Shown here: positions 9,810 to 34,781 of the stretch, piece after piece
How the letters are laid out: each line of letters begins with the position of its first letter
Position numbering within the stretch: the first letter of the stretch is position 1
NCBI GenBank assembly: GCA_963704905.1
Contig: CAVPHZ010000002.1
Coordinates: forward strand, 428,905 to 492,904
Direction of reading: 5' to 3'
Length of the DNA: 64,000 bases
DNA from: Candidatus Chisholmbacteria bacterium
GTDB lineage: Bacteria > Patescibacteriota > Microgenomatia > UBA1400 > Chisholmbacteraceae
Made by a program: the position numbers and the translations under genes
Notes under the pieces: generated by a model
Told to the model about the DNA's origin: nothing
Seen by the model: the letters and a program-made list of their open reading frames with translations, nothing else
Database searches by the model: none

Positions 9810-12800
9810 TTACGGTGCCACTTCTCTCCAGGTGTACAGCGACCGTCTGAAGAAGGCGGGAAGCCGTGTGATAAATTCAGGGACATACGTAAATACCTCT
9901 CCGGGTGTATCATTATTCCTTACCCAGAGATCTCTCTGAAGGTCCACATTACCCCAGGCGACAACGGTACCATTCACCCGGAGCTGAGTGGTGACCGGCG
10001 GATCAACGGTCACGTCAAATCCGCAGTCATCAATATCTCCGCAGGTTCTGAACACCTGATCTGTCATGTACACTCCTTCAAGCAGGGTTACGGGTTCTTC
10101 AACTCTCATGCTCCCATTGGTAAGCAGTACCAGGAGCCCATTGCCAACCATGGTGATCTCTCCCCCACTCGGATTCAAGTAAAGGATATTGTCACTCGGG
10201 TCACCATCAGTAAAGTTAACAAAAATAGTTTTCACCTCATCAATATTCGCCCAGCTTCCAGAGAGAGTAATGTTCCCGGCCGGAACTTGAATCTCCCATA
10301 CATTATTAGGCGAAGCAGGAACCGGAGGCTGGTCAACAAGATCAGGTAATGGTGTAAGGGATTCCGCCTCATCTCTCCAGAAGTTGAATAAAAACTGGTC
10401 GCCCGCATACAGGCTCGTTGCCTCCCAATCACTCGAGGAAACAACACCAATGTCTCCACCGGCGCCGTGAGTCAGCACTCCGTCGCTCCCCGTTGTGCTC
10501 AGCATCAGCCAAGGAGTACAGGTTAGGGGCATGCAGGTTCCCGGTATGGTTACGCCGACATTGGCATCCGCATGCACATCCCCATCCACAACCTGCCACC
10601 AGGAAGCTTGAATATCAGAAACAAAGAAGTTCACATCTGCCTCAGGATTTGTAACTGAATATGAACCGCAGAACGACGGAGGATTCGACCCGTCAAATGG
10701 ACAGGTACACGCCCAACCGAGCGCTGGATCCGGATCGACAGATAAACTTAAGGTATACGGTCCACCTGCAGGTGCATCGATTGAATACTGCCCGTTCCCG
10801 GGATCAATGGTGTCATCAAAGTATCCCCCCGGATTGAGATTGACAATCGAATTCGGCCCAGGCTGGACACCGGGATATGGAGGGCTCGGTGCTTCGCTGC
10901 ATCGTCCGCCAATCAAGGTTGCATCACCGTAGTCGTCCTGTCGTACCTGCCCATCGATGGAACACTGGTCATAGAAGAAGCTGACACCAGCACTGGCTGG
11001 GCCGGTTCCGCACGCATTTGTCACAGCCACTCTCCAGGTATAATCAAGGTCAACATCGAGCGTATCTTGGATAGATGACGTAAGTCCTGCATCTGCAAGT
11101 TTCGTCAAACAATGGTCACCGGGATCAAATGGACCGGCACAGCTAAAGGTCGCATCAATAGGCCATTGGTCAACTTGGACTTGATATGAAGTCACTCCTG
11201 CAACTGAGCCGGGAACATTATTCCAAGTAAATGTCACATTGTTCGGGGAAGGTCCATAATCACAATTATCGGGAGGATTGAGCATAGTCGTAACTAAGTT
11301 TGTTGGGGCAACTGAAGGTGTATCCATCACCGTCATCGTCGTTCCTGCCAACGGACTCCAAGCGCAGGCATTGCGGTAGTGCACCCACCAGTTATAGCTG
11401 TTCCCAGCCGTAACCGGCAGATTAAATGAGGTTCCCCCGACATTATTGATGCATGTATCATCGGGATTTGGAGGCAACGGATTATTGCACTGTCCGTTCC
11501 ATCCATTCGCCGTCGTATTATCTACACGCAGCGCATACAGCTCATTACAATTCGCACCCGCATTCCATGAAAGAGTCACACTCCCCCCGGCATCACAGAT
11601 CAGACCTGATGGATTCAGGCCGGTAGGCGGATTCACAGGGGAATTTGAGGTGTTAAATGTCTGCCACGAAGAAAATGGGCCATTCCCGCAAGCACTCTCA
11701 GCTCTCACTCGAACTCCATAGTTGTAACATGACTGGACCGGGACAGTCTGATTACTAGCAGCCGGATAATAGCAATTGTCTCCCGGGTTCAATGCGCTGC
11801 AATTGTTCCAAGAGGAATACCCTCGGTCAACATTCAGGCGATAACTACTCGCTCCAGTCACATCATTCCAATCAACAGCAACGTTGACAGCATCACATAT
11901 CAGTCCTGAGGGAGTAAGATTTCCTGGAGCAGGAAATGTACTGCCGTCAATGACGTCAACTGTTAATAAATCATTCGCAGTGCAGTCGCTCCAGCTCGGA
12001 CCGCAGGTTTGAGTATTGGGAGGGTTCGGAGACCATTCACACCAGGGGTTCCCGGAGCATGCATGTCCGTTTACTGCACCTTGAAGCGGATCATAAGCAT
12101 TGCATGTAAGATAATACGACCCGGCAGTATTAAACGTTGTTGCTCCGCTCCCATCACAACCGTTGCCTGTACATCCTCCAGGGCTGGAAAAAATATTGGT
12201 CCAGGTCTGTAAACTCGTCGGGGATCTCCAAACCTCAGCTATACGGAGATTTGTATCAGCACCGTCTACTGCATAGGTTCCGCTCCCTCCCACACAGACA
12301 CTTGTCGGGCCGGATACAGAGCAGGTTGGGGATGCCGTATCAACAGTAGTCAATGCACCGCAAAAGGCGCTGTCACCAGAAGCATTCCGAAATTGTACGC
12401 ACACTTTTCTGTCACCATCTCCTCCTGATAGCGTCCAGTTGTATGGTGAGGTATAACCCACCCAGCCGGACCAGCCTGCCTCCCCGCCTGTTAGAGTGGA
12501 ACAAACTGTGGCTGAGGCGGTATTAAGAAACCGCATCTGTGTTGCAGATGTATTATTTAAAAATAGAGCAACTGTATTATTTCCGCTGTAGCACTGCGCA
12601 TCTCTGGGAGAACCGTTCCACTCGTTTAAGTCACACGTCCCAACTTTGATATCTTGAAATGATGTACACGACGGAACACCCCCAGCCACTGAATATGGAA
12701 TGCTGTCCTGCCGCGCACAGCAATCATCAGCCGTTCCGGTAACCAGCGAACAGATATGGTTATAGGAGCCTGAAGTACCTGGAGCCGTGCAATTAAACTG

Positions 12801-13466
12801 CGCTGAAGTTCCATTCCAGCCAGTCCAAGCGCATCCGCTGTAGGCACCGGTGGGCTGAATACAATCAATGACAGCACCATAATCACAGCTCACGGTGATG
12901 GCTCCGTTTGCTGAAGCAGGATCAGGATTAACGCTTGCGCCGAAAAATCCATGATTGTTGCATCCCCCTGGAGGAGAGGTAGGCGTCGGTCCCCCAGTAG
13001 GAGTGGGCGTCCCCGAACCTGGTCCGCAGCATCCTTGAGTGTAATCCTCCCAATCCTCATTACAAGTTTCATTAACAACATTAACCTGACACGTCATTCT
13101 CCGCCCTTCATAACGGCAAGTGCTACCGCCTTGATTACAAACTACATATGAATTCCACACACTGCAATATGGACGGGGGAAGGTTCCCCCACATACTCGA
13201 ATACAGGACCCCCCTCCGTATACTCCGCAATCATCATCGTCACGGCAAGTTTGACTTGTAGCTCCTTGACAAACATAAACTCGAGTACAGTCATTGCATG
13301 CATGCTGATTGATTTGCGTAGTCGGCCAGCATGCCCCGCCAGGGCAAGCAGGATGAGGCTCTATGAGTTGCGCATTGACGAAACTCGATGCAGCAAAAAG
13401 CGCAAATAATATAATGATCGATCCGGTGATGCTGATGATAAAATTTCTGAATGACTTCATTATCAT
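9810..13466 (-). CDS. giant Cys-rich secreted protein with FN3-like repeats (1218 aa), function unknown
   Basis: Signal peptide (IISITGSIIILFALFAASSFVNA); very high Cys content with CxxC/CxC patterns; repeated ~90-aa modules (PSGLICDA...W/SYRL/SYQV) resembling fibronectin-III/Ig-like folds; Pro/Thr linkers. Confidence 0.55.
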   Translation of the reverse strand: MIMKSFRNFIISITGSIIILFALFAASSFVNAQLIEPHPACPGGACWPTTQINQHACNDCTRVYVCQGATSQTCRDDDDCGVYGGGSCIRVCGGTFPRPYCSVWNSYVVCNQGGSTCRYEGRRMTCQVNVVNETCNEDWEDYTQGCCGPGSGTPTPTGGPTPTSPPGGCNNHGFFGASVNPDPASANGAITVSCDYGAVIDCIQPTGAYSGCAWTGWNGTSAQFNCTAPGTSGSYNHICSLVTGTADDCCARQDSIPYSVAGGVPSCTSFQDIKVGTCDLNEWNGSPRDAQCYSGNNTVALFLNNTSATQMRFLNTASATVCSTLTGGEAGWSGWVGYTSPYNWTLSGGDGDRKVCVQFRNASGDSAFCGALTTVDTASPTCSVSGPTSVCVGGSGTYAVDGADTNLRIAEVWRSPTSLQTWTNIFSSPGGCTGNGCDGSGATTFNTAGSYYLTCNAYDPLQGAVNGHACSGNPWCEWSPNPPNTQTCGPSWSDCTANDLLTVDVIDGSTFPAPGNLTPSGLICDAVNVAVDWNDVTGASSYRLNVDRGYSSWNNCSALNPGDNCYYPAASNQTVPVQSCYNYGVRVRAESACGNGPFSSWQTFNTSNSPVNPPTGLNPSGLICDAGGSVTLSWNAGANCNELYALRVDNTTANGWNGQCNNPLPPNPDDTCINNVGGTSFNLPVTAGNSYNWWVHYRNACAWSPLAGTTMTVMDTPSVAPTNLVTTMLNPPDNCDYGPSPNNVTFTWNNVPGSVAGVTSYQVQVDQWPIDATFSCAGPFDPGDHCLTKLADAGLTSSIQDTLDVDLDYTWRVAVTNACGTGPASAGVSFFYDQCSIDGQVRQDDYGDATLIGGRCSEAPSPPYPGVQPGPNSIVNLNPGGYFDDTIDPGNGQYSIDAPAGGPYTLSLSVDPDPALGWACTCPFDGSNPPSFCGSYSVTNPEADVNFFVSDIQASWWQVVDGDVHADANVGVTIPGTCMPLTCTPWLMLSTTGSDGVLTHGAGGDIGVVSSSDWEATSLYAGDQFLFNFWRDEAESLTPLPDLVDQPPVPASPNNVWEIQVPAGNITLSGSWANIDEVKTIFVNFTDGDPSDNILYLNPSGGEITMVGNGLLVLLTNGSMRVEEPVTLLEGVYMTDQVFRTCGDIDDCGFDVTVDPPVTTQLRVNGTVVAWGNVDLQRDLWVRNNDTPGEVFTYVPEFITRLPAFFRRSLYTWREVAP

Positions 13467-14086
13467 CGTATGATTCCGATACGGTCAGGGATAAGGATAA
13501 AATCATCAGGAATTCTTCCCTCTTCCGATTGACCTTTAAATTCTAAATGTAAACCGTTCAGTGTCGCGTCAATCAACCGGTTATACTCAGCCTCAAACTC
13601 CTGTTGACTGGATAACTCGATTTCAATCCGCAACAACACATCTTCCCCTTTCTGCAGTACATCCACAGCTTCGCTCGTGGGAGTAGCACTCCAGGATGAT
13701 TCTCGGTAAAAAGATCCATCATATTTTCCTAGAAAAACGTTACCTGCTAAACTTCCGGCAAGAACCGGAATACTGCGCTCCTTTGAATCTCCCTTGATGA
13801 CAAAACTCCCGGCAAGCAGTCCATCATCCCTGCGTTCTAATCCATTAGGAAACGATCCCTCAAGTTCATAAGCTACCGATTGAAGATCTAGGCTGATTTG
13901 TTTGCGGATGACATCGCCGAACTCGTATGGCGGAGGGGTGATTTGAAGTGATGGTGGAACTTGATCTTGTGGCTGGCTCTGCTGTTCTGTCTTCAAATAT
14001 AGATAACCAATAAGAACAACAAGTAAAACGGCAAAAAACACAGTGACTGAGTATGGCAGTACTTTCTTCATAAAGAAGGCCTGCAT
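13463..14086 (-). CDS. N-terminally membrane-anchored protein (207 aa), co-operonic with the giant protein
   Basis: TM helix VLPYSVTVFFAVLLVVLIGYLYL. Its stop overlaps the start of the downstream 1218-aa gene by 4 nt (ATGA). Confidence 0.45.
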   Translation of the reverse strand: MQAFFMKKVLPYSVTVFFAVLLVVLIGYLYLKTEQQSQPQDQVPPSLQITPPPYEFGDVIRKQISLDLQSVAYELEGSFPNGLERRDDGLLAGSFVIKGDSKERSIPVLAGSLAGNVFLGKYDGSFYRESSWSATPTSEAVDVLQKGEDVLLRIEIELSSQQEFEAEYNRLIDATLNGLHLEFKGQSEEGRIPDDFILIPDRIGIIR

Positions 14087-14162: not shown

Positions 14163-16667
14163 CTACTTGCGATACCGATCAGGAAAGTAAATCTGATCCC
14201 AATCTAGAAAATACCCCTTAAAATCAACGAGTTTACCATTTTCGATTGAATTAAAAACTTGCCTTCTTTGATTAACTATATCTGAGGGAAGATCAGGGTT
14301 GTCAATTTGCAGTCCCACAAAAAGCTGTTGATTTCTCATGTCCGGATTCCAAAACCAGTCGATGACATCTTGATTGGTAATGATTGTTCTGTTTCCAATC
14401 GGCTGAGAGATATCATTATCTTTAAAAAATCCGATTCCATGCGAACTTCCGGGTTGATCGGGCATGATCAGTGAGAAAAAGTATGAATCACCTCCGGGAG
14501 TTACCGTTTCACAGAGGACTTTGATGGTATTCTCATATGCCATACGATCCCATCCAGCAACATCCCTGACAATACATGATAGCGTTCGAATTCGAATAAA
14601 GCCGGTTTTACCACTGAGCCCACTTGTAGTTTCATGATCAACATCATACTCCGGCAATCTTCCCAGCGGTGCAGGAACCATCTCTCCGTCTTCGTTCTGT
14701 GTAAACATGGGTTTTATTTGAGCCTCGTCTATAGGAACAAAAGACGAAGCAAGGAAAACATCACAATCATTGACTAATACACCTGAAATCTTAGATGTAA
14801 ACTCTTCGCATACCTTCGCCGCTTTGGGAACAAAAGACTTCAGTTCCCCTGCACCGGTATCATATTCATACACCGGCCGGTATCTGCCTTCTTGAAAGAC
14901 CAGCGTCCTGCCGTTGATTTTCTCAACCCGGTCAGCTTGTTCTTCTGGTGTCTGCCAGGTTCCCATATCTCGATTCCAGAAAGACCATCTGCCGTCTTCA
15001 CCCTCCTCAACAGCCTGCGCCTCCACCCACTGCCCTGGCTCTCCACCAGGTCCGTCAGGGTCAGCAAATCTTGAAATAGGGTTTCCATCCTTATCAAGCC
15101 CCACAAATCCCGCTCCGGGAACATCGACCAGAGTCACTACTCCATCAGGCAAGTCAAGTTGCGGAGGGGCTTCACCCGCAAATACCCATACAGTACTTGG
15201 TTGGTCAACAACTCCGTCAGGATTCAAAATTCCCACAGCTTGCCCATCTTCAACGCCTACAATCGTCCACTCACATCCGTCCACTTTGACTGGAACAAGC
15301 TGGTCAAATATTCCCTGTGCAGACAGTGTCCATACGGTTGCTTGCGTATCCCGAGGGACTCGATCGGGTAAAACAGACAAACTGGCATCACCACCGGGAG
15401 CCAGCCACAGCCAAGTGTTACCCTCTTTTAAACTTAAGAAATAACCTCCATAGGCACTGGCATGCATCTCAATCAGAGCCGTATTCTCAGCATTTGGATT
15501 GGCTTCTGCCTGACCTTCGACAAACACCTGTGCCCCATCAACTTCAGTTACAATTGTATTCACAGCCTCTTGGGCATACTCAGGAACCACCACAGCTCTT
15601 CCGCTTCGTGCAGCATGTATTCCCATTGCCGTGACTGAGGTTACTACTTCTTGATTGATCGCCTGGGACATATCGCCTGGTTCAACGCCAAAAACACTCT
15701 GGAACCCTTCTTTTGACTTAACCAGCACACCAACTTCGGGATTAACGCTGGAATCCATAACAAAATCCGGGGAAAAGATCACCGCATTGGAATCAATCCC
15801 GCAAAACAGCGGATCCTCTGGAGAAGGCGTTGGAGCTATAGTCGCTGTTTCTGACGGATCTGGTTTAGCTGTCTCCGATGAGACAAGAGGAGATGCTGGA
15901 GTCGGGCTCAAAGCAGGGATTGTTGGAGGAATATCTATCTGCTCAATCCCCGCACATGCAGCAGCAGATAATGCCATAGTTGCATACACACCTACCTTCA
16001 AAACTGTCTTGCCATACGCTTTCCGGCTTTCAGCCCTGGCAATTGCTTGCTGATGATCGAATATCGGTTGCAGGTCAACCATCCTGCGAGATCGCTCCCC
16101 GTTTACCCGCTGATCAGGGAGAGACAAAAACCGTTCCCGATACAACAGAACACCCTCAGGTTCTTTGGCAGTTCGCTGACTATCCCATGCGGTGCGGGAA
16201 ACCGCCAGCCAATAGCCAGCCTCTTCTGCTGAAACGCCGAATTGTTGCTCAAAATCATCCCGAGTAAACTTGACCTGACTTCCATTTGGAGCGATATACC
16301 CTTCTGGTTTGCTCAATGCGGAAAGCCCGGCTGCAAACCAAAGTGCCTGCTCCAAACCGGAAGTAGGCATATCCTCATGTTGTCCATTGTGCTGACCTCG
16401 CGTAGCCTGTCTGCTTCGCACATCAGGAACCGCACCGGCAACCACCACGTTCAAACCGTCTTCACTCGGACCCACAAAAAACAGAGACTGTCTTGCCAGC
16501 TGATGCAAAAGGTCTGAGCTGGTTCGCAGTCCTCCGTATTCTCCATCAATAAGTATAGTACCTTGTTGGTTCACCCACCGACCGGCAGACTCAGCGGGAT
16601 AAGAAACCCTAGATTTGGGACGGATGGTCTCTCCGCCTCCGTAAAATGTTTGTTGATTAAAAGCCAT
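14163..16667 (-). CDS. paralog-array membrane protein 1 (834 aa); unique N-terminal domain, TM, S/P/T linker, shared extracellular modules
   Basis: Single internal TM (VGVYATMALSAAACAGI) after a ~220-aa N-terminal domain, then a Pro/Ser/Thr-rich linker. The C-terminal ~330 aa is near-identical to paralogs 2 and 3 (ADPDGPGGEPGQWVEAQAVEEGEDGRWSFWNRDMGTWQTPEEQ...MRNQQ). Confidence 0.6.
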   Translation of the reverse strand: MAFNQQTFYGGGETIRPKSRVSYPAESAGRWVNQQGTILIDGEYGGLRTSSDLLHQLARQSLFFVGPSEDGLNVVVAGAVPDVRSRQATRGQHNGQHEDMPTSGLEQALWFAAGLSALSKPEGYIAPNGSQVKFTRDDFEQQFGVSAEEAGYWLAVSRTAWDSQRTAKEPEGVLLYRERFLSLPDQRVNGERSRRMVDLQPIFDHQQAIARAESRKAYGKTVLKVGVYATMALSAAACAGIEQIDIPPTIPALSPTPASPLVSSETAKPDPSETATIAPTPSPEDPLFCGIDSNAVIFSPDFVMDSSVNPEVGVLVKSKEGFQSVFGVEPGDMSQAINQEVVTSVTAMGIHAARSGRAVVVPEYAQEAVNTIVTEVDGAQVFVEGQAEANPNAENTALIEMHASAYGGYFLSLKEGNTWLWLAPGGDASLSVLPDRVPRDTQATVWTLSAQGIFDQLVPVKVDGCEWTIVGVEDGQAVGILNPDGVVDQPSTVWVFAGEAPPQLDLPDGVVTLVDVPGAGFVGLDKDGNPISRFADPDGPGGEPGQWVEAQAVEEGEDGRWSFWNRDMGTWQTPEEQADRVEKINGRTLVFQEGRYRPVYEYDTGAGELKSFVPKAAKVCEEFTSKISGVLVNDCDVFLASSFVPIDEAQIKPMFTQNEDGEMVPAPLGRLPEYDVDHETTSGLSGKTGFIRIRTLSCIVRDVAGWDRMAYENTIKVLCETVTPGGDSYFFSLIMPDQPGSSHGIGFFKDNDISQPIGNRTIITNQDVIDWFWNPDMRNQQLFVGLQIDNPDLPSDIVNQRRQVFNSIENGKLVDFKGYFLDWDQIYFPDRYRK
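14335..15075. repeat. near-identical coding block shared with 17175-17910 and, partly, 19320-19900
   Basis: Visual nucleotide alignment shows long runs of identity with a few SNPs. Antisense spurious ORFs with identical translations recur in the ORF track (MLTLTDLVESQGSGWRRRLL... three times). Confidence 0.7.
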
Positions 16668-17005
16668 ACAAATAAACGCTGCGAACAGCGCCCAATCGAC
16701 AGCATGTTCTCACTCATGCTATCGAGTCTCAATATGTAACCAATGCGTAATATGTATAAACAGCATATCAATCCGCATCAGTTAATTTCGCTATTAAACA
16801 GTGGCAGTCTTGGGGCAAGAGGCAGTCGTGGCAGCTAGGCAGAGCTTGTGGCAGGTACACAAAAAAATGAGCTTATGAGATACAGCATCCATCAATAATT
16901 ATTTTCGAAAATAATTATAGCATAATAGATCTTAATACAACAATTTAATCTAGAGCTCTAAGCCTGCTTTCTCAAGCTTTCAATAATTTACAAGAAGAAA
17001 AACAA

Positions 17006-18703
17006 TCACTTTCGATACTGATCAGGCAGGAAAAGAACGTCCCAATCGAGCATGTAAGCTGCATCGTCCTTGAGCTGACCTTGATCAATAGCATTAAATA
17101 CTTTCCAGTTATGAGCAATAAGATGATCAGGAAGGAATGTATTCTCAATCTGAAGGTTAACAAAAATTTGTTGGTTTCTCATGTCCGGATTCCAAAACCA
17201 GTCGATGACATCTTGATTGGTAATGATTGTTCTGTTTCCAATCGGCTGAGAGATATCATTATCTTTAAAAAATCCGATTCCATGCGAACTTCCGGGTTGA
17301 TCGGGCATGATCAGTGAGAAAAAGTATGAATCACCGCCGGGAGTTACCGTTTCACAGAGGACTGTGATGGTATTCTCATATGCCATATAATCCCATCCAG
17401 CAACATCCCTGACAATACATGATAGCGTTCGACTTCGAACAAAGCCTGTTTGTTTTATCTCGCTCAAGTCAAAATCGATGTCATATTCAGGCAATCTTCC
17501 CAGTGGTGCAGGAACCATCTCTCCGTCTTCGTTCTGTGTAAACATGGGTTTTATTTGAGCCTCGTCTATAGGAACAAAAGACGAAGCAAGGAAAACATCA
17601 CAGTCATTGACTAATACACCTGAAATCTTATCTGTAAACTCTTCGCATACCTTCGCCGCTTTGGGAACAAATGGTGTTAGCTCACTAGTCTCAGTATCAT
17701 ATTCATACACCGGCCGGTATCTGCCTTCTTGAAAAACCAGCGTCCTGCCGTTGATTTTCTCAACCCGGTCAGCTTGTTCTTCTGGTGTCTGCCAGGTTCC
17801 CATATCTCGATTCCAGAAAGACCATCTGCCGTCTTCACCCTCCTCAACAGCCTGCGCCTCCACCCACTGCCCTGGCTCTCCACCAGGTCCGTCAGGGTCA
17901 GCAAATCTCATCATTGGGTTGCCATTGGTATCAATCGCCACGTACCCATGGTCTATGGTGAGGATCGCAGTTGCTCCTTCGGGAGTCGGACCATACTCGG
18001 GAGTGACTGTCGGCAACGGCATGAGTGTGGACGTACTCCTGGGTGTGCTGGTAAACCGCTGCACAGGGGTAGTGGTCAATGTGGGAACAACAGCCGGTTT
18101 CGTTGCAATCTCCTCAGGTGTGAGTGCTTGTTGACAAGCCTGCAAAAACGCTGTGAAGGATGCGGTCAAAGGCACCAGCCACTTCCCCCCTCCGGATCCG
18201 TTTCCATTGTCAGGAGTAGGTGATGATCCACTGTCGGGAGAGTGAGTTGGGCCTTCGACAATCTGCTGGACACCTCCCGGTCCTCCGCTTGCTCCGCCGG
18301 CAAGCAGTGAGACAATCAGCAGGGTATTCATCGTCTTGACTGCCCAGCCGGGTAGCTCAATCAGTTCCCCGTTATCTTCTAGCGGAATGCCGGTTGCAGC
18401 ATCACGGATGACCAGCGCATCCCATTCCTGCGGTGAGACTCCGATATACTTGTCATAGGGGGTTCTTTGAGGCAGGTGAAATGGGTGTCCGTTCCCCAGC
18501 CGTTCCTTTGTCCTGGAAGGAAGGGATCCGAAACCCTGATGAGAAAGTGCGTCAGCAAAAGCCATAATTGGTGAATTGGCTGGAATTATACCAGAGTAAC
18601 AATCAGAATGATGAAAACTTTTCAAAAAGAGCACCGCTTCCGCAATACTGCCAGGAAAAACGAAACCAGAGCCATCTGGTGTTTTGTCCTCCAAGGGTGT
18701 CAA
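17006..18703 (-). CDS. paralog-array membrane protein 2 (565 aa)
   Basis: N-terminal ~130-aa domain (MTPLEDKTPDGSGF...), TM (TLLIVSLLAGGASGG), S/P/T/G linker, then the shared C-terminal modules. Large nucleotide blocks are identical to paralogs 1, 3 and 4. Confidence 0.6.
   Translation of the reverse strand: MTPLEDKTPDGSGFVFPGSIAEAVLFLKSFHHSDCYSGIIPANSPIMAFADALSHQGFGSLPSRTKERLGNGHPFHLPQRTPYDKYIGVSPQEWDALVIRDAATGIPLEDNGELIELPGWAVKTMNTLLIVSLLAGGASGGPGGVQQIVEGPTHSPDSGSSPTPDNGNGSGGGKWLVPLTASFTAFLQACQQALTPEEIATKPAVVPTLTTTPVQRFTSTPRSTSTLMPLPTVTPEYGPTPEGATAILTIDHGYVAIDTNGNPMMRFADPDGPGGEPGQWVEAQAVEEGEDGRWSFWNRDMGTWQTPEEQADRVEKINGRTLVFQEGRYRPVYEYDTETSELTPFVPKAAKVCEEFTDKISGVLVNDCDVFLASSFVPIDEAQIKPMFTQNEDGEMVPAPLGRLPEYDIDFDLSEIKQTGFVRSRTLSCIVRDVAGWDYMAYENTITVLCETVTPGGDSYFFSLIMPDQPGSSHGIGFFKDNDISQPIGNRTIITNQDVIDWFWNPDMRNQQIFVNLQIENTFLPDHLIAHNWKVFNAIDQGQLKDDAAYMLDWDVLFLPDQYRK
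17690..18598. repeat. ~0.9-kb direct repeat, near-identical to 19683-20591
   Basis: Covers the N-terminal domain, TM and linker coding region of paralogs 2 and 3. Only isolated mismatches were seen (e.g. gatccActg vs gatccGctg). Confidence 0.75.
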
Positions 18704-18958
18704 AACAACCGATAAAACCTGTCTGGAACGGGTCGGTTCATGAATGATGGAAATCGCAGGGTTAAATCGATGATCATATCAATCGCCCTGCTCACCATCA
18801 GCAGTGCTACATTATTTGTTTGAAAACAAAAAGTCTGTCCCCTGACTCTCCAAGTGGAACTCAAGTGAGGTAAAAAACTGATAGTAGTAAAAAGCGGAAA
18901 GAAGCACCATGCGTTATACCGCTGCATCATTCAATCTGGAATACTCGTGAACCCGTTG
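18045..18958. repeat. ~0.9-kb direct repeat, near-identical to 21568-22476 (5' coding part plus ~255 bp upstream region of paralogs 2 and 4)
   Basis: Identical 76-aa spurious ORFs at 18700..18930 and 22227..22457. The nucleotide runs match with about one SNP (ccaaggg vs ccagggg). Confidence 0.75.
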
Positions 18959-18989
18959 AGCTTTCAATAATATACAAGAAGAAAAACAA

Positions 18990-20780
18990 CTACTTCTTGA
19001 TTCTCGCAGGCAAATAAATAACATCCCATGTCATAGGGTACTTACCGAGAATGTCTTCCATTTTGCCAGCTTCGATCGCTTGAAAAACCTTCCAGTTATG
19101 CTCGATCACATCTGGCAGTGATAAAAGCCCTGGTGTCTCCATCTGTAGTGTCACCATAATCTGTTGATTATTCATCGCCGGATCCAAAAACCAATTGATC
19201 ATATCCTGATACGTAATCGAGCTTCTCCTACCTATTGGTCGCCCAACATCATCATCCTCGAAAAACTGAATCCCATGTGCTTGACCTGGTTGATCCGCCA
19301 TGATCAATGGAAAAAAGAAAGAATCACCGCCGGGAGTTACCGTTTCACAGAGGACTTTGATGGTATTCTCATATGCAAAGTATGGCCAAGAGGCTATACC
19401 CCGAACTACGCACGAAAATCCTTTGTCACGAATATAACCTGTGTCACCTGTCACAATACTCTTCGACTCAAAATTCATATCATAATCAGCAAACCTCCCA
19501 AGCGTAGCAGGAACCATCTCTCCGTCTTCGTTCTGTGTAAACATGGGTTTTATTTGAGCCTCGTCTATAGGAACAAAAGACGAAGCAGGGAAAACATCAC
19601 AGTCATTAACCACCTTGCCCTCAAAGGTAAACTCTTGGCATACCTTCGCCGCTTTGGGAACAAAAGACTTCAGTTCCCCTGCACCGGTATCATATTCATA
19701 CACCGGCCGGTATCTGCCTTCTTGAAAGACCAGCGTCCTGCCGTTGATTTTCTCAACCCGGTCAGCTTGTTCTTCTGGTGTCTGCCAGGTTCCCATATCT
19801 CGATTCCAGAAAGACCATCTGCCGTCTTCACCCTCCTCAACAGCCTGCGCCTCCACCCACTGCCCTGGCTCTCCACCAGGTCCGTCAGGGTCAGCAAATC
19901 TCATCATTGGGTTGCCATTGGTATCAATCGCCACGTACCCATGGTCTATGGTGAGGATCGCAGTTGCTCCTTCGGGAGTCGGACCATACTCGGGAGTGAC
20001 TGTCGGCAACGGCATGAGTGTGGACGTACTCCTGGGTGTGCTGGTAAACCGCTGCACAGGGGTAGTGGTCAATGTGGGAACAACAGCCGGTTTCGTTGCA
20101 ATCTCCTCAGGTGTGAGTGCTTGTTGACAAGCCTGCAAAAACGCTGTGAAGGATGCGGTCAAAGGCACCAGCCACTTCCCCCCTCCGGATCCGTTTCCAT
20201 TGTCAGGAGTAGGTGATGATCCGCTGTCGGGAGAGTGAGTTGGGCCTTCGACAATCTGCTGGACACCTCCCGGTCCTCCGCTTGCTCCGCCGGCAAGCAG
20301 TGAGACAATCAGCAGGGTATTCATCGTCTTGACTGCCCAGCCGGGTAGCTCAATCAGTTCCCCGTTATCTTCTAGCGGAATGCCGGTTGCAGCATCACGG
20401 ATGACCAGCGCATCCCATTCCTGCGGTGAGACTCCGATATACTTGTCATAGGGGGTTCTTTGAGGCAGGTGAAATGGGTGTCCGTTCCCCAGCCGTTCCT
20501 TTGTCCTGGAAGGAAGGGATCCGAAACCCTGATGAGAAAGTGCGTCAGCAAAAGCCATAATTGGTGAATTGGCTGGAATTATACCAGAGTACTGGTCAGA
20601 GGAAATCACTACCGCAAATTGAAAAATCCAGACTATTTCGGTACTTGACGATAATCTTGAAAAAAACGGCGTTCTTTGAAACAGTAACCATACAAATCTA
20701 TTGATTTGCATCCATCCAGGCTTGCAGTGCATCTTCGGGGACAAATATCGATTCTGTATGAAAAACATTAGGTGTATCAA
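18990..20780 (-). CDS. paralog-array membrane protein 3; N-terminus diverged/truncated, start uncertain
   Basis: Same architecture as paralog 2 from YSGIIPANSPIMAFADAL onward. Upstream of nt ~20591 the sequence departs from the other copies, and the longest ORF start (20780) overlaps the 3' end of paralog 4; alternative Met starts lie at 20732 and 20711. Confidence 0.5.
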   Translation of the reverse strand: MIHLMFFIQNRYLSPKMHCKPGWMQINRFVWLLFQRTPFFSRLSSSTEIVWIFQFAVVISSDQYSGIIPANSPIMAFADALSHQGFGSLPSRTKERLGNGHPFHLPQRTPYDKYIGVSPQEWDALVIRDAATGIPLEDNGELIELPGWAVKTMNTLLIVSLLAGGASGGPGGVQQIVEGPTHSPDSGSSPTPDNGNGSGGGKWLVPLTASFTAFLQACQQALTPEEIATKPAVVPTLTTTPVQRFTSTPRSTSTLMPLPTVTPEYGPTPEGATAILTIDHGYVAIDTNGNPMMRFADPDGPGGEPGQWVEAQAVEEGEDGRWSFWNRDMGTWQTPEEQADRVEKINGRTLVFQEGRYRPVYEYDTGAGELKSFVPKAAKVCQEFTFEGKVVNDCDVFPASSFVPIDEAQIKPMFTQNEDGEMVPATLGRFADYDMNFESKSIVTGDTGYIRDKGFSCVVRGIASWPYFAYENTIKVLCETVTPGGDSFFFPLIMADQPGQAHGIQFFEDDDVGRPIGRRSSITYQDMINWFLDPAMNNQQIMVTLQMETPGLLSLPDVIEHNWKVFQAIEAGKMEDILGKYPMTWDVIYLPARIKK

Positions 20781-22230
20781 TACTCATTGGAACTCCCTGC
20801 TCCAAAACTTCGAGAAACGGATGAAAATAGTCCATACTGGGATCAACTTCTGCCCTCTGATTATCCTCATCAGACCAGCGCAATGTGATGATAATCTGCT
20901 GATTTCTCATAAACTCTGACTTGAAAAACTCTATCATCTCTAGCGAATTTAATGGAGTGAATTGAGCATTCTCTATAGGAATGGCAGCATGTGGGGAGAG
21001 ATTTTCCTTGATGCTCTCTCTCGGTACAGAAAATATCCACCAGAGAGGGCTTGAGTTTTCTATGGAGTTGAACGCTTCAGGATCACTATCCTCAAGTGAC
21101 CAGTCAAGTTTGGAGTCTGCTATAGTAACAAGAGCTGATTGCAGTCCGCCATCCAAACGCAGCAGACATTCACTCTTGATAGTGTTTGGGCCATCTAAAT
21201 ATTCCCATGGTACCCACTCTCCTGTCACAACACAGGCAACTGATTTGTATACACTTACAATACCTTGGTACTCAATAACCTTGTCCAATTCAGGGATGTG
21301 CCCGTCAGCAAGCGTGACTGACTGCCCGTTTCGCATCATCTGCAGAGTGCTGATAGTGGCGTCATCAAGCGGTTCGCGGAAATCTGGTAAGCCGGCACAA
21401 TCGTCAAGATAGCCAAGTACTGCGTCGTTTCGTTGACACACCCGCTTCACTCCAACCGCATTGGGAACCTCACTGGTCATCACAGATACAGGAGTATTCT
21501 TGGGTGTTGGCTCAAGAGTAGGCTTAGGGAACAGTGTGGTTATTGGAGTAAGCCTGGGAGTAATCCGTGGTGTGCTGGTAAACCGCTGCACAGGGGTAGT
21601 GGTCAATGTGGGAACAACAGCCGGTTTCGTTGCAATCTCCTCAGGTGTGAGTGCTTGTTGACAAGCCTGCAAAAACGCTGTGAAGGATGCGGTCAAAGGC
21701 ACCAGCCACTTCCCCCCTCCGGATCCGTTTCCATTGTCAGGAGTAGGTGATGATCCACTGTCGGGAGAGTGAGTTGGGCCTTCGACAATCTGCTGGACAC
21801 CTCCCGGTCCTCCGCTTGCTCCGCCGGCAAGCAGTGAGACAATCAGCAGGGTATTCATCGTCTTGACTGCCCAGCCGGGTAGCTCAATCAGTTCCCCGTT
21901 ATCTTCTAGCGGAATGCCGGTTGCAGCATCACGGATGACCAGCGCATCCCATTCCTGCGGTGAGACTCCGATATACTTGTCATAGGGGGTTCTTTGAGGC
22001 AGGTGAAATGGGTGTCCGTTCCCCAGCCGTTCCTTTGTCCTGGAAGGAAGGGATCCGAAACCCTGATGAGAAAGTGCGTCAGCAAAAGCCATAATTGGTG
22101 AATTGGCTGGAATTATACCAGAGTAACAATCAGAATGATGAAAACTTTTCAAAAAGAGCACCGCTTCCGCAATACTGCCAGGAAAAACGAAACCAGAGCC
22201 ATCTGGTGTTTTGTCCTCCAGGGGTGTCAA
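20698..22230 (-). CDS. paralog-array membrane protein 4 (510 aa) with divergent C-terminal domain
   Basis: N-terminal 215 aa are identical to paralog 2, including TM and linker. The C-terminal domain is diverged but keeps the MRNQQI motif. Its upstream region is a copy of that of paralog 2. Confidence 0.6.
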   Translation of the reverse strand: MTPLEDKTPDGSGFVFPGSIAEAVLFLKSFHHSDCYSGIIPANSPIMAFADALSHQGFGSLPSRTKERLGNGHPFHLPQRTPYDKYIGVSPQEWDALVIRDAATGIPLEDNGELIELPGWAVKTMNTLLIVSLLAGGASGGPGGVQQIVEGPTHSPDSGSSPTPDNGNGSGGGKWLVPLTASFTAFLQACQQALTPEEIATKPAVVPTLTTTPVQRFTSTPRITPRLTPITTLFPKPTLEPTPKNTPVSVMTSEVPNAVGVKRVCQRNDAVLGYLDDCAGLPDFREPLDDATISTLQMMRNGQSVTLADGHIPELDKVIEYQGIVSVYKSVACVVTGEWVPWEYLDGPNTIKSECLLRLDGGLQSALVTIADSKLDWSLEDSDPEAFNSIENSSPLWWIFSVPRESIKENLSPHAAIPIENAQFTPLNSLEMIEFFKSEFMRNQQIIITLRWSDEDNQRAEVDPSMDYFHPFLEVLEQGVPMSIDTPNVFHTESIFVPEDALQAWMDANQ

Positions 22231-25106: not shown

Positions 25107-25904
25107 TCAGTGCAAAGTCAACCGGGAACGGAAGATTAGAAACCCAAAACGAAGAAGATCTAACTGACGCTTCAATCTCCATGGCTGCCTGACTAACCGA
25201 TACATCCAATCCAGTCCTAGCCTGGTCATAAATTGAGGAGGCTTGAGGCTTGGATCAACGATCATATCAATCGCCCCGCCCACAACCATGCCAACCTTGA
25301 TATCCAGCTGTTTGAGATTGTCATAAAGCCACTTCTCCTGCCATGGAGCCCCATAGCCGACAAATAAAAGATCCGGCTTAAATCGATTAATCTGGCGAAC
25401 TATCCTCTCATTCTCCTCTTCAGAGTAATCGCGAATATCCCAATGCCCCTCAATTCCTTTTATTTGAGCCATAATTCTTAAAGGTTCCGAACCTTTAAGA
25501 TCATACTGTAATTTTTTTGCTGCTTCCTGAGCAACACCCACTTTTCCCCCAACCAACATCACTCTCCAACCATTCTCTTTAGCACTGTCTATCAAGCTAT
25601 TCATGATTTCTTCGCCCGTCACTCTACCTAAAATGACAGGACCGGACCCTGTCAGTAAACGGCTCGCCCACACTAAGCCCACGCCATCGCAGAGTGCTAA
25701 CGATGCCTCATTCAAAATCGTGCGGAAACGCTCGTCCTTTTGCGCCATCATCACCTGTTCAGGATTCGGAGTCACTATCATCCGTTTCGCCTTTTGTTCG
25801 ATAAATTGCTCAATCGTCGCTAAAACTTCCCGCCTGGTAATCGCGGAGATATGGACACCGAGAATGGAAATAGATGGTTGAATCGAATGGTTTAATGTTG
25901 ACAT
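25107..25904 (-). CDS. WecB/TagA/CpsF-family glycosyltransferase (GT26)
   Basis: ILGVHISAIT...RMIVTPNPEQVMMAQKDERF...LALCDGVGLVWASRLL...FVGYGAPWQEKWLYDN...RLGLDWMYRLVRQPWRL matches the GT26 family signature. Confidence 0.7.
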   Translation of the reverse strand: MSTLNHSIQPSISILGVHISAITRREVLATIEQFIEQKAKRMIVTPNPEQVMMAQKDERFRTILNEASLALCDGVGLVWASRLLTGSGPVILGRVTGEEIMNSLIDSAKENGWRVMLVGGKVGVAQEAAKKLQYDLKGSEPLRIMAQIKGIEGHWDIRDYSEEENERIVRQINRFKPDLLFVGYGAPWQEKWLYDNLKQLDIKVGMVVGGAIDMIVDPSLKPPQFMTRLGLDWMYRLVRQPWRLKRQLDLLRFGFLIFRSRLTLH

Positions 25905-26092
25905 ACAAAACTGCTGACAAGAACCGAGAGTATATTATTATATAGTATAGATATATCTTATATTCTACGTAGTATTCTAAATTGAATAGCTTTACTACTC
26001 AAATCTAATCAGGTTCATAAGCCTGGTAAATCAAGTTGGGTAGGCAACTGATATGAGAGATATAACAAACTTATCCAGGATAGCAAAAAAAA
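25905..26092 (-). promoter_or_regulatory. AT-rich intergenic region, probable promoter for the GT26 gene
   Basis: 188-bp, very AT-rich spacer (tatattattatatagtatagatatatct...) between the GT4 and GT26 genes. No specific -35/-10 assignment attempted. Confidence 0.2.
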
Positions 26093-27286
26093 TCACTTCT
26101 CCTGACGAACAGCCGATTCAAATACCGAGAGTGTCGCTCTCGCCGTCCTCTCCCACGTGAACTGTTTCACTCGTCTCAGTCCTTTTTCAACCAAACCTTC
26201 TCTCAGCTCTTGGCTTGATAATACCAGTTTCATCGCTTCTGAAAGTTCATCAACCGACGTAGGTTCTACCAACAATCCCGCATTGCCAACAACCTCAGCC
26301 AAAGCTCCAGCTCTTGATGAAACAACCGGCGTTCTGGCTGCCATCGCCTCAAGGACAGGTAACCCGAATCCTTCTGTCAAACTAGGTTGAACATAGAGCT
26401 CAGCTTCTTGAAAAAGCACTGGTAGGTGTTCATCCTCAACAAATCCAATGAACTTAACCTGATCCGCAACCCCAAGTTTTCCAGGCATTCGTAACACATC
26501 GTCATACATCCACCCCAACTTCCCGGCAATCACCAGCGCTAGTGAGTCCAAATCGTCATGTTGAGTTTCCGATCGTGAACCTAAGTTCACGTTCCCGATA
26601 TCGGTCTTCGTTTCATGCTTCTTAAGCCGAGCAAATGCCTCAATCAGCCGAACCAAGTTCTTTCTCGGCTGAATCACCCCAACAAACAGCACATAAGGCG
26701 AAGTAATACCCAGGTCCTTATGCATTTTTCCTTTTTCCGCATGTGAAAGTTTCTTTCCAAATCGCTTGGCATCCACACCTTCGGAAACAACAGTAATTTT
26801 TTCAGACTCAGCACCAAGTCTTCGGATAAGATCATCCTTTGTAAACTGAGACACGGCAATCAGCTGGGAGGAATGATTCACCGCATACCGGGTTGAAGAG
26901 GTTAAATAATACTTCTGCGGCACTTTATAGTGCTCAGGCAGATACTCATACTCGAGTCCATGAATTGTTACAACGGTTGGCAAACCGCTTCTTCTCAACA
27001 CTGGCAACGTATGCGCCGGGACAAACAGCAAATCAAGATTATCCTTCCACGTGGCCAGTGCCAAACCGCCCTGCGTCCACAACCTCGGCCATCGAAGCTG
27101 TTTGACCCAAACATTCGGCCGACCTTTAAAGGTCTCACCCTGCAAGATAGGCTGTCTACGCACATAGACAATATATTTATTCTTCCGATCAATCTTGAGA
27201 AGCGCTCGAAGAAGTTGATACGAATAATTCTCTGTTCCGCTCCTCTTTTCTTCAAACGCCCTTGATGCATCAAAACCGATGGTCAT
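26093..27286 (-). CDS. glycosyltransferase family 4 (GT-B, group 1)
   Basis: C-terminal EGFGLPVLEAMAARTPVVSS is the GT4 E-X7-E region. 397 aa. Confidence 0.7.
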   Translation of the reverse strand: MTIGFDASRAFEEKRSGTENYSYQLLRALLKIDRKNKYIVYVRRQPILQGETFKGRPNVWVKQLRWPRLWTQGGLALATWKDNLDLLFVPAHTLPVLRRSGLPTVVTIHGLEYEYLPEHYKVPQKYYLTSSTRYAVNHSSQLIAVSQFTKDDLIRRLGAESEKITVVSEGVDAKRFGKKLSHAEKGKMHKDLGITSPYVLFVGVIQPRKNLVRLIEAFARLKKHETKTDIGNVNLGSRSETQHDDLDSLALVIAGKLGWMYDDVLRMPGKLGVADQVKFIGFVEDEHLPVLFQEAELYVQPSLTEGFGLPVLEAMAARTPVVSSRAGALAEVVGNAGLLVEPTSVDELSEAMKLVLSSQELREGLVEKGLRRVKQFTWERTARATLSVFESAVRQEK

Positions 27287-29140: not shown

Positions 29141-30145
29141 TCATCGCTTTACAATATTCCGCTTATACAAATGTAAATTCTCCAACGCGATACCTGTTCC
29201 CTTGACAACTGCCAGCATTGGTTCTTCTGCTACATGACAAGGAACCCCGGTCTCCTCGGTCATGAGCACATCAAAATTTCTGAGTATACTCGTTCCTCCA
29301 GTCATGACAATACCTTTGTCGATGATGTCACTCGCCAACTCTGGAGGCACCTGTTCCAAAACTCCTTTCACAGCCCCAATAATAAGCGAAAGTGGACGCT
29401 GTATCGCTTGCGTTATCTCAGTGCTAGTAACAGTAATTGTCTTTGGTAGACCAGTAAAATGATCACGTCCTTTAACTTTCATTTCCTCTTTTTCTTTCAG
29501 TTCAGTAGCCGATCCTATCTTGATTTTTATCATCTCCGCTGTCTGGTCGCCAACCACCAAGTTGTGTTTACGTCTGGTATATGTAGCGATTGCTTCATCG
29601 ATTTTATTCCCAGCCACTCGCACACTTTTATGAGTTACCACACCTCCCAAAGAAATAACGGCTGCCTCTGCAGCTCCGCCTCCGATATCAAGGACCATAT
29701 TCCCAGATGCTTGAGAAATTGGAACTTGGGCTCCAATCGCCGCTGCCAATGGCTCATCAATCAAATATGCATGTCGAGCACCTGCCGACAGTGTTGCATC
29801 AAGCACCGCCCGTCGTTCAACTTGAGTACAACCGGCCGGAACACAGATCATCACCTCAGGTCGAAAAAGAAATGACCGCCCGACAACCCTTTGAATAAAA
29901 AATCGAAGCATCGCCTCCGTTACAGCGTAATCGGCAATCACGCCATCACGCATCGGCCTACTTGCCGTGATGTTTCCGGGAGTTCTCCCCAACATCTCAC
30001 GTGCTTCATTGCCAACTGCAACGACTCGATTATCTTCAATAGAAACCGCCACAACAGTCGGCTCATTGAGCATGATGCCTTTTCCAACCAGCCATACAAG
30101 TGAATTAGCAGTTCCAAGATCAATCCCCAGACGTTTTGCAAACAT
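29141..30145 (-). CDS. mreB: rod-shape-determining actin homolog MreB
   Basis: MFAKRLGIDLGTANSLVWLVGKGIMLNEPTVVAV...DIGGGAAEAAVISLGGVV are the canonical MreB phosphate-1 and phosphate-2 motifs. Confidence 0.85.
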   Translation of the reverse strand: MFAKRLGIDLGTANSLVWLVGKGIMLNEPTVVAVSIEDNRVVAVGNEAREMLGRTPGNITASRPMRDGVIADYAVTEAMLRFFIQRVVGRSFLFRPEVMICVPAGCTQVERRAVLDATLSAGARHAYLIDEPLAAAIGAQVPISQASGNMVLDIGGGAAEAAVISLGGVVTHKSVRVAGNKIDEAIATYTRRKHNLVVGDQTAEMIKIKIGSATELKEKEEMKVKGRDHFTGLPKTITVTSTEITQAIQRPLSLIIGAVKGVLEQVPPELASDIIDKGIVMTGGTSILRNFDVLMTEETGVPCHVAEEPMLAVVKGTGIALENLHLYKRNIVKR

Positions 30146-30231
30146 ACGCAAGCCCTCAATCTACAACGAAAATCGTGGCAAGTATAACATATCTCTTCCT
30201 CCTAAAAACTCGCTTCTTTGGCAATGTTATA

Positions 30232-31611: not shown

Positions 31612-31662
31612 AAGAACAAAATCGGATAGCAAACCTTTGATGTTTTTGCTAAAATCTTGGGT

Positions 31663-32745: not shown

Positions 32746-32772
32746 CCAAACCACTCCCTTGACTCGATCCTC

Positions 32773-34142: not shown

Positions 34143-34781
34143 ATGCCAAATACAAATAATACTATTAAAAGATATACTAATGAATCAGGTTTCTCTCTCA
34201 TTGAGCTTCTTATGGGTATGGCGATCTTCTCTTTTCTTCTCTTGGGTGTTTTTGGTCTTCAGCAACTCTTGATGCAAGGCGAAGAATTTGGCATCAGCAC
34301 AGCTTTCACCATCGAGAACGCCCAAAGTTCCCTTCAAAATCTGGTTCAAGAATTACGCAACGCCAGGCAATCGGATGGTGGAGCCTACCCCCTGGAATTG
34401 GCCGATGATCAAGAAATTATCTTCTATAGCAACGCCGACCAGGACAATCAGATAGAACGGATTCGCTATTTCCTTCAAGGTTCAGATCTTCAAAAAGGCA
34501 CAATTGATCCGGTAGGATTTCCAGTCACCTATCCTCCTGGCAACGAAGTTGTAACAACCATTGCCAATTTTGTTCAAAATGACACGGATCCAGTGTTCTT
34601 CTACTACAACCAGGACTGGCCTGCCGACATCATCAACAACCCACTCACAACACCTGCCCAACTAAATGATGTTTCACTTGTTAAAATAAATGTGAGAGTA
34701 AACGCAGATCCCGAAAATCCATCGAGCGAATTTGTCCTCGAACCGTTTGTTCAGATCCGCATGTTAAAAGATAATTTATGA
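34143..34781 (+). CDS. type IV pilin/pseudopilin
   Basis: NESGFSLIELLMGMAIFSFLLLGVFGL is a canonical prepilin peptidase motif (G|FSLIEL). The gene begins 2 nt after the previous stop. Confidence 0.6.
   Translation: MPNTNNTIKRYTNESGFSLIELLMGMAIFSFLLLGVFGLQQLLMQGEEFGISTAFTIENAQSSLQNLVQELRNARQSDGGAYPLELADDQEIIFYSNADQDNQIERIRYFLQGSDLQKGTIDPVGFPVTYPPGNEVVTTIANFVQNDTDPVFFYYNQDWPADIINNPLTTPAQLNDVSLVKINVRVNADPENPSSEFVLEPFVQIRMLKDNL

Follow-up and report, generated by a model that had tools for sequence, protein, structure and literature searches.

How bacteria of the Candidate Phyla Radiation (CPR, or Patescibacteria) recognize and attach to other cells is, to our knowledge, largely unknown beyond their type IV pili. 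Type IV pili are host-attachment organelles of Patescibacteria (Saccharibacteria) (PMC12206443). Among other described systems, the modular Gram-positive adhesins (MSCRAMM-like and SasG/Rib-type) are extracellular proteins in which a Sec signal peptide, a tandem stalk of immunoglobulin (Ig)- or fibronectin type III (FN3)-type domains and a Pro/Thr-rich linker are combined with a presumed binding role, and the polymorphic toxin/immunity systems (CdiA-CT/CdiI, Rhs, LXG) join a scaffold to a terminal domain that is swapped together with a small cognate gene at a hypervariable locus. Here, we describe a pair of overlapping genes that resembles both in these respects and that lies in a 64,000-nucleotide stretch of Candidatus Chisholmbacteria bacterium (GenBank assembly GCA_963704905.1, contig CAVPHZ010000002.1, positions 428,905 to 492,904; hereafter, the window). 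One gene encodes a large secreted protein beginning with a Cys-rich region, the head, and ending in a conserved C-terminal region; the other, located upstream, encodes a small membrane-anchored partner. In alignments and gene neighborhoods, the type of partner follows the variable head rather than the relatedness of the genomes, and the combination of a conserved scaffold, a variable N-terminal head and an upstream cognate membrane partner could be matched to no described system.

The window protein differs from Gram-positive adhesins in being devoid of an LPXTG/sortase signal and of SLH, LysM or choline-binding anchors, ending instead in WREVAP, as well as in its 62 Cys residues, its unannotated C-terminal beta-solenoid domain and its co-varying membrane-anchored partner gene. 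That it might be a sortase substrate was rejected, as its C-terminus (...SLYTWREVAP) displays neither LPXTG nor a hydrophobic segment. HINT-type domains, present in some family members, are a further likeness to polymorphic toxin/immunity systems. In contrast to these systems, the variable domain lies at the N-terminus and its cognate gene upstream, encoding a membrane-anchored protein with an ectodomain; export is by Sec only, and no toxin or immunity family was recognized in Pfam, NCBIfam or PADLOC. With the type IV pili of Patescibacteria (PMC12206443) the system shares the question of host recognition by ultrasmall episymbionts, pilin genes being found next to a family member in L065/L066 and a pilin-like gene in the window; the window protein, with its Sec signal and without an N-methylation motif, is however no pilin and would thus represent a separate, non-pilus surface system. 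A pilin or ComZ-like minor pilin was accordingly rejected, the signal being of the classical Sec type (VNA↓Q), with no match to N_methyl (PF07963) and a ComZ fold match that was weak (E = 0.08, root-mean-square deviation 20). A two-partner secretion exoprotein (TpsA/TpsB) was also set aside, as no such Pfam domains were found and the partner is a 207-aa single-pass protein.

Results

Co-variation of head and partner

Both open reading frames (ORFs) proposed in an earlier note on this DNA, of 1218 and 207 amino acids (aa), were seen in the sequence, as was their overlap, the TGA stop codon of the partner gene and the ATG start codon of the large-protein gene interlocking as ATGA (Table 1). That note had also asked whether the small partner is conserved next to homologs of the large protein. 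To compare neighborhoods, 57 further loci with a family member (labeled L001 and so forth) were gathered through context look-ups and a metagenome scan, and classes of upstream genes were counted over the ~40 distinct loci whose 5′ end is intact. Homologs of the window partner (29-35% identity, E 1e-17 to 1e-30) were found directly upstream of the family gene, with a -4 overlap, in L001/2, L003, L012 and L025, and this type of partner (family 1) was found with the same overlap in L063 and L065. The partner is thus conserved in place at six other loci of the window type, and the lack of co-conservation that the note had named as a refutation was not seen.

A hidden Markov model (HMM) of the head of the window protein (type 1; PHPxCP..CW..CCGPG) matched only the window, L001/2, L003, L012, L025, L063 and L065. 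Type-1 heads and family-1 partners therefore occurred together in seven of seven loci and never apart, ~34 other loci providing no exception, a count to which no formal probability is attached because the loci are not phylogenetically independent. Two of the seven came from a prospective look-up: proteins P0043 and P0071 (L063 and L065) had type-1 heads, and a family-1 partner was then found upstream of each (E = 1e-58 and 1e-41; -4 overlap). A third look-up, of P0153, yielded a different head with an abutting gene for a 200-aa anchored protein that does not belong to family 1.

The pairing of head and partner is independent of the similarity of the C-terminal domain. L001 shares 43% identity with the window in the head, 31% in the partner and 24% in the C-terminal domain, and L025 35%, 31% and 26%, respectively; in L004, L013 and L006, neither head nor partner can be aligned with those of the window, and the C-terminal domain is 42-44% identical. 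Across type-1 loci, identity to the window in that domain ranges from 24% to 41%. The clusters formed by N-terminal regions mirrored those of the partners: heads of type 1 go with family 1 and heads of type 2 with family 2, while L036-38 have a partner of their own.

In ~21 of the ~40 loci, the family gene is preceded by a small gene (139-233 aa) with an N-terminal transmembrane anchor, most often at a distance of -41 to +37 nt (two at +180 and +223). Eleven loci have instead a ~430-540-aa membrane-anchored or lipobox-bearing protein with a Pro/Thr linker at this place, and the remaining five another kind of gene. The small genes fell into family 1 (the window type), family 2 (L004, L009, L013 and L023) and the pair from L036 and L038, the others being singletons. 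An hhalign comparison of families 1 and 2 returned a probability of 72%, deriving in part from the transmembrane segment, and no homology to the remaining small genes was detected. The notion that loci without a small partner would be those without a Cys-rich head was rejected, since the 11 partnerless loci do have Cys-rich heads.

A fast-evolving position next to glgA

The window, L003, L004/5, L011, L012 and L013 represent one orthologous position, which immediately precedes glgA and two GH57 genes. Between these loci, glgA is 75-78% and GH57 56-73% identical, whereas the best-conserved domain of the large protein reaches just 39-44%. This same position is occupied by type 1 in the window, L003 and L012, and by type 2 in L004 and L013. 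Given this gap in identity and the differing types of heads and partners, the cassette evolves much faster than its neighbors and is exchanged in place. Cassette-like co-variation of a terminal domain with an adjacent small gene was altogether observed in three clusters, and at the orthologous locus too.

At type-2 loci, the stretch between the family gene and glgA encodes a 174-aa protein with an N-terminal anchor (L004, 4745-5269; L005, 3003-3527; L013, 7291-7815). This protein harbors an RskA_C (anti-sigma-factor C-terminal) domain in L004 and L005, the L013 copy being recognized by N-terminal similarity only.

Domain organization of the large protein

Features of the pair and of the upstream array are listed in Table 1.

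Table 1. Coordinates of the gene pair, its domains and the upstream array in the window (position 1 is the first nucleotide of the stretch; AF2, AlphaFold2).
Feature	Position	Strand	Description
Tandem array of four membrane-anchored paralogs 'X'	14163..22230	(-)	834, 565, 596 and 510 aa
Partner gene	13463..14086	(-)	207 aa; public annotation (P0156, NCBI/ENA) begins at Met6 (14071), giving 202 aa; homologs directly upstream in L001/2, L003, L012, L025, L063, L065
Partner transmembrane anchor	13994..14053	(-)	Residues 12-31, preceded by Lys-Lys; predicted N-in, C-out; hydropathy maximum 2.5
Partner ectodomain	13466..13924	(-)	OB-like beta-barrel, long helix and C-terminal strand; no Cys; ends in invariant G-[IV]-[IVA]-R
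ATGA stop/start overlap of partner and large protein	13463..13466	(-)	Read in sequence; -4 overlap in 7/7 window-type pair loci
Large secreted protein	9810..13466	(-)	1218 aa, 62 Cys, 5 Lys, strongly acidic
Sec signal peptide	13371..13466	(-)	Residues 1-32, cleavage VNA↓Q; read from sequence
Type-1 Cys-rich head	13026..13370	(-)	Residues 33-147; IEPHPACPGGACWPT ... CCGPG; 16 Cys
Pro/Thr/Gly-rich linker	12963..13025	(-)	Residues 148-168; from sequence; follows the head in homologs too
Module A	12681..12962	(-)	Residues 169-262; ~94-aa Cys-rich 'CDYG' module, common to 9 other proteins
Module B	12288..12680	(-)	Residues 263-393; Cys-containing
Module C	11937..12344	(-)	Residues 375-510; Cys-rich extension (NPWCEW)
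Three tandem FN3 domains	10959..11930	(-)	Residues 513-612, 613-718 and 720-836, each with extra Cys
Transthyretin-like / CarboxypepD_reg-like beta-sandwich	10617..10961	(-)	Residues 836-950; AF2 and Foldseek
Family-defining conserved C-terminal domain	9837..10616	(-)	Residues 951-1210; WWQ..GDVH ... TNGN ... DLQRDL ... TPGE.FTY.PEF; beta-solenoid rungs ~1056-1176 (AF2)
Conserved C-terminal tail YTWREVAP	9813..9836	(-)	Motif W-x-E-[VIL]-x-P; unstructured in model

The signal peptide predicted in the earlier note is recognizable as K/R, a hydrophobic core at residues 10-27 and the VNA↓Q junction, and the A↓Q junction directly before the head also occurs in homologs of the large protein; no further transmembrane segment was found beyond it. 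The Cys-dense N-terminal region and the Pro/Thr linker were likewise borne out: Cys amounts to 5.1% of residues, with 27 of the 62 within residues 1-300. With 111 Asp+Glu against 39 Lys+Arg, the protein is strongly acidic. At 1218 aa it is large for its family, not giant as had been stated, examined members ranging from ~340 to 1360 aa. The GC-rich codon usage noted earlier is real and only modest, GC content being 0.49-0.505 over window positions 10001-14000 compared with ~0.44-0.45 across most of the window; this elevation fits the Gly/Pro/Ala/Thr/Cys-rich composition of the protein and does not require a foreign origin. Nineteen N-x-S/T sequons are present in the large protein, and the window also contains a gene for a PMT-like protein mannosyltransferase (37479-38804) and several glycosyltransferases (25107-27286). 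Glycosylation of the Pro/Thr linker is conceivable.

Where at least four FN3/Ig-type repeats had been proposed, the FN3 type held and the number did not. Three repeats were found, each at E about 1e-45 with a repeat HMM and with self-BLAST E values down to 8e-9; a fourth, sought by both methods, gave nothing better than E = 0.06, and the remainder of the N-terminal half is made up of three Cys-containing modules that differ from one another. Searched against the PDB, a profile built from the three repeats and 15 homologous segments matched titin A77-A78 (E = 3.1e-8), FN3con (3.5e-7) and PTPRF/S, contactin and fibronectin (1e-5 to 1e-6). By these profile matches, the three repeats belong to FN3. 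They resemble the fibronectin type III domain (PF00041) at the profile level (E = 3e-8 to 1e-5), but are divergent and Cys-containing, and a single repeat stays below the Pfam threshold, the only direct fn3 match being that of repeat 3 (E = 0.022).

Preceding the FN3 repeats, module A matched no known family, and a PDB profile search with it returned no significant match. The core of module B (~315-385) is repeated up to 19 times in proteins of 1300-3400 aa, three of which were scanned (P0007, P0013 and P0015) and contain Big_13, Big_7 or Big_3 Ig-like domains by Pfam; against PDB profiles, module B had a marginal match only, to beta-2-microglobulin (E = 0.065). Weak PDB profile matches of module C to 4xed (E = 0.0018), an entry bearing the name 'Peptidase M14, carboxypeptidase A' that we interpret as PKD/Ig-like, and to a bacterial Ig domain (E = 0.02) suggest that it is probably a PKD/Ig-like domain with a Cys-rich extension.

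The C-terminal region and the family it defines

Judging from the alignments, the family is defined by the last ~385 residues of the large protein, and in the members examined this shared region is always C-terminal. An exhaustive HMMER search of 1.8 billion representatives detected 987 relatives at E <= 1e-3 and 293 at E <= 1e-10, and matches to the large protein were modular; word-index searches returned essentially just the query proteins themselves. The window protein scores 366 bits against the C-terminal-domain family profile (A1, 47 members). In 106 of 139 family members, the motif W-x-E-[VIL]-x-P is found at the end or no more than six residues from it, in most of them forming the final residues; the window version is WREVAP. 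Invariant residues of the domain are mostly Gly, Trp, Pro and aromatic; those that are polar are Q, R and E only. A search of the genome contigs of a species collection with the window protein returned only two weak loci, both from Candidatus Woesebacteria metagenome-assembled genomes, the nearest genomes that bear a name.

Neither the large protein, the partner nor the upstream array proteins had a match in Pfam, NCBIfam, PHROGs, PADLOC or PDB sequences. The C-terminal core carries no Pfam domain in any of the 47 members, and a PDB profile search matched only the preceding FN3 domain. In the literature searched, no description of the family, its heads or its partners was found. A Hint / intein-like domain (bacterial intein-like or pretoxin-HINT) occurs in four of the 47 members of A1; in L029 (3265-6777) and L042 (813-3188) it directly follows a short Cys-rich N-terminus. 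From its position, the Hint domain could splice out or release an N-terminal peptide in such members.

Residues 836-1218 were modeled with AF2 from the 47-sequence alignment (predicted local distance difference test [pLDDT] 87; predicted template modeling score 0.83). In agreement with the beta-rich C-terminal domain proposed earlier, the model comprises a beta-sandwich, a run of short strands and an unstructured tail, the last seven residues having pLDDT values below 50. With Foldseek, residues 836-950 matched the transthyretin-like domain of carboxypeptidase D (5aq0; probability 0.99, template modeling [TM] score over the target 0.65, E = 0.1), and Pfam CarboxypepD_reg was found in one of the 47 family members, not in the window protein.

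The best partial matches of the short-strand part were ice-binding-type beta-solenoids and the ComZ pilin solenoid (E 0.05-0.08). DUF3494 ice-binding-like and ComZ solenoids are its nearest likenesses, 7ddb being matched with probability 0.99 over 151 columns and 6qvi at E = 0.08. Over ~150 columns, two of 7ddb, 6a8k and 3uyu gave probabilities of 0.96-0.99, 3uyu giving 0.41, with E values of 0.05-2 and TM scores of 0.2-0.3. The window protein differs from these solenoids in that no match reached E <= 1e-3, TM scores were 0.2-0.3, there is no class III prepilin signal, and it has signature motifs of its own together with the W-x-E-V-A-P tail; PF11999 (DUF3494) had no Pfam match in the window protein or any of the 47 members. 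Fold searches with the C-terminal domain against the PDB and viral structures of BFVD gave no match at E <= 1e-3, nor did the fold search of the PDB with the partner. The fold labels used here for both proteins thus denote resemblances, not memberships.

The partner

As claimed earlier, the small protein is N-terminally anchored, with one hydrophobic helix. In the AF2 model of the 202-aa form, this helix spans residues 7-31 and a disordered Pro/Gln linker residues 29-49; the best model, from a three-sequence alignment, has a pLDDT of 81, and of about 90 in the ectodomain. The top Foldseek matches of the ectodomain were nearly all oligonucleotide/oligosaccharide-binding (OB) folds, namely, SSB 1z9f (probability 0.96, TM score 0.48), the LysRS anticodon-binding domain and OBody, all of them weak (best E 2.8e-3) and obtained with a model built from three sequences. 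The absence of Cys from the partner rules out a thiol oxidoreductase.

Neighboring genes

Each of the X proteins encoded upstream of the pair in the window consists of a cytoplasmic N-terminal region, a transmembrane segment, a Pro/Thr linker and an ectodomain. The earlier note had suggested that array and pair may form one surface module, which synteny supports: in all six other type-1 loci (L001, L003, L012, L025, L063 and L065), the partner is preceded by a ~480-620-aa membrane-anchored protein, mutually homologous between loci, and those of L001, L003 and L012 have lipobox-type N-termini. Homology of the window X proteins to the L003 copy (E = 2e-6) and to a 696-aa protein of L013 (3e-13) is weak. 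From their position and anchoring, X proteins are probably a third component of the surface module. Within the array, 300-nt segments are 98-100% identical between copies (for instance, 18028-18327 equals 20021-20320, and 21555-21854), and ORF 18990-20780, the N-terminus of which is aberrant, overlaps with ORF 20698-22230. Together, these segments and the aberrant ORF suggest a recent duplication or gene conversion, possibly with a broken copy.

In L065 (6539-8966) and L066 (3750-5138), the family gene, a type-1 member, is closely followed by three to five pilin-like (N_methyl) genes on the opposite strand. The pilin-like gene of the window (34143-34781) adjoins genes for PEGA/CarboxypepD_reg proteins (30136-34140). 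At several unrelated loci, a 7TM_transglut membrane protein and one or two ATP-grasp (RimK-like) genes are found downstream of family members (L001, 11955-15061; L002, 2694-5719; L067, 8170-10340; L068, 6091-8261).

Elsewhere in the window are DUF4012, ComEC/ComEA, ATP synthase, aminoacyl-tRNA synthetase and pilin-like genes, giving it the look of a small CPR genome; the contig measures 509 kb. A gene for a VirD4/TraG-like coupling protein (38988-41165) directly follows tRNA-Arg (38832-38904), with tRNA-Pro (37347-37419) upstream of the intervening PMT-like gene. By its gene content, the segment 37347-41165 may be what is left of an integrated conjugative element.

Discussion

We read the pair, with about an equal chance of being right or wrong, as a hypervariable, unannotated surface module of CPR/Patescibacteria in which the ectodomain of the partner binds the head and which, with X, forms a complex for contact with cells or surfaces. 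The large protein would be exported by Sec and fold outside the cell as a disulfide-stabilized modular fiber made up, from N- to C-terminus, of the head, the Pro/Thr linker, modules A, B and C, three FN3 domains, the transthyretin-like sandwich and the beta-solenoid domain with its W-x-E-V-A-P tail. The partner, presumably translated from the same mRNA and coupled through the ATGA overlap, would be held in the membrane by its single N-terminal helix, presenting an OB-like ectodomain on a short flexible linker. Binding of this ectodomain to the cognate head would then tether the large protein, or hold its head, at the cell surface, probably in the same complex as the upstream X proteins, and the assembly would most likely mediate contact with another cell or surface. 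The binding of head and partner, the tethering, the end that faces outward and the adhesive role are what we infer from the features described above. As to orientation, the Pro/Thr linker beside the head and the co-varying anchor argue for a head proximal to the cell, while the conserved C-terminal domain and tail, and the rule that tips vary, argue for a distal one.

Several points weigh against this reading. A hypervariable anchoring interface is unusual, and contact with conserved cell machinery would, by the look of it, rather fall to the conserved C-terminal domain and tail. The searches revealed no adhesin domain whose ligand is known. The contact between head and partner is predicted from co-variation, which over seven loci could in part stem from common descent of a linked 5′ block. 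As homology of the partner is undetectable beyond close relatives, small genes located upstream at other loci may be analogs rather than homologs; 11 loci with Cys-rich heads have no small partner; and the partner model was built from three sequences, with just two of five models being confident.

A rival reading, which we regard as unlikely, is that of a polymorphic effector/immunity-like or recognition cassette, the head being an effector, toxin or recognition determinant that is delivered or released, the remainder of the protein a scaffold for display or delivery, and the partner a protection for the producer or the cognate receptor. The strict co-variation of head and partner speaks for it, as do the conserved scaffold with a terminal domain swapped along with an adjacent small gene at an orthologous, fast-evolving locus and the Hint, intein-like or pretoxin-HINT domains of several family members, which could release the upstream peptide (L029, L042). 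The polarity is, however, reversed with respect to known polymorphic toxins, with the variable domain at the N-terminus and the small gene upstream; no toxin or immunity family was detected in Pfam, NCBIfam or PADLOC; the window contains no orphan head or partner cassettes; and the window protein itself has no Hint domain. A related proposal, to which we likewise give a small chance, is that allelic Cys-rich heads sit on a conserved fiber, each being recognized only by its cognate membrane-tethered partner, in a polymorphic lock-and-key system of CPR bacteria whose cassettes are swapped between strains at a fixed hotspot. Such a system would be an effector/immunity system of N-terminal polarity or a code for the recognition of self or of partner cells, serving host range or kin discrimination of ultrasmall episymbionts.

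Slightly less likely still, in our estimate, is that the partner is only a membrane-tethered chaperone for the folding or export of the disulfide-rich head, the first part to emerge from SecYEG, with the C-terminal domain and W-x-E-V-A-P tail serving as the anchor and the head as the distal, ligand-binding tip. The absence of a small partner from 11 family loci implies that it is not indispensable for anchoring, and no part of the protein is better conserved than the C-terminal domain and tail, which are always terminal in the members examined, as would be expected if they touched conserved envelope components. In adhesins, it is as a rule the tip that varies, and translational coupling and head-specific co-variation would suit a cognate chaperone. 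The partner, however, has neither Cys nor a thioredoxin or chaperone family signature, the Pro/Thr linker stands beside the head, where the wall-spanning linkers of anchored proteins are usually found, and the C-terminus of the large protein shows no known anchoring motif (LPXTG, lipobox, SLH or LysM).

We consider it very improbable that the large protein acts as a carbohydrate-active enzyme, namely, a secreted lyase, hydrolase or epimerase of the beta-helix kind that is equipped with binding modules and functionally linked to the glycogen genes downstream. Its C-terminal domain is predicted to be beta-solenoid-like, very weak fold matches to AlgG, YbhC and rhamnogalacturonan lyase were obtained, and glgA and GH57 follow on the same strand in six loci. 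These fold matches, however, had E values of 0.7-3.7 and TM scores of at most 0.17, and the identity of a known enzyme such as a polysaccharide lyase, which the earlier note had held up as a refutation, found no support: no enzyme family emerged from Pfam, NCBIfam, PDB sequence or fold searches, and no carbohydrate-active enzyme or lyase family from the sequence and profile searches among them. The scarcity of polar residues among the invariant ones also argues against catalysis, and glgA/GH57 belong to cytoplasmic glycogen metabolism and are not neighbors in more distant loci.

That the two genes are merely adjacent, their overlap and neighborhood incidental and their proteins independent, is barely credible: four-base overlaps are common in compact genomes and partner homology fades fast with distance, yet the same pairing and overlap recurred in all seven loci, two of them predicted beforehand, a small anchored gene occupies the same position at ~21 loci, and partner type tracks head type, not genome relatedness. 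A defense system and a phage tail fiber or depolymerase were also considered and rejected.

In the module that we propose, the signal peptide, the FN3/Ig stalk and the beta-solenoid are familiar, and no family model exists for the heads, the partners or the core C-terminal domain. A family with about 1000 detectable relatives, whose core domain has no Pfam or NCBIfam model, is now defined. It comes with a concrete hypothesis, namely, that a variable disulfide-rich head is always exchanged together with its cognate membrane-tethered partner, at a locus that evolves faster than its housekeeping neighbors. Should head-partner pairs turn out to determine specificity, be it in adhesion, in immunity or in recognition, they would provide an example of cassette polymorphism with a polarity opposite to that of classical polymorphic toxins, and uncultivated bacteria would gain markers of their host range or strain identity.

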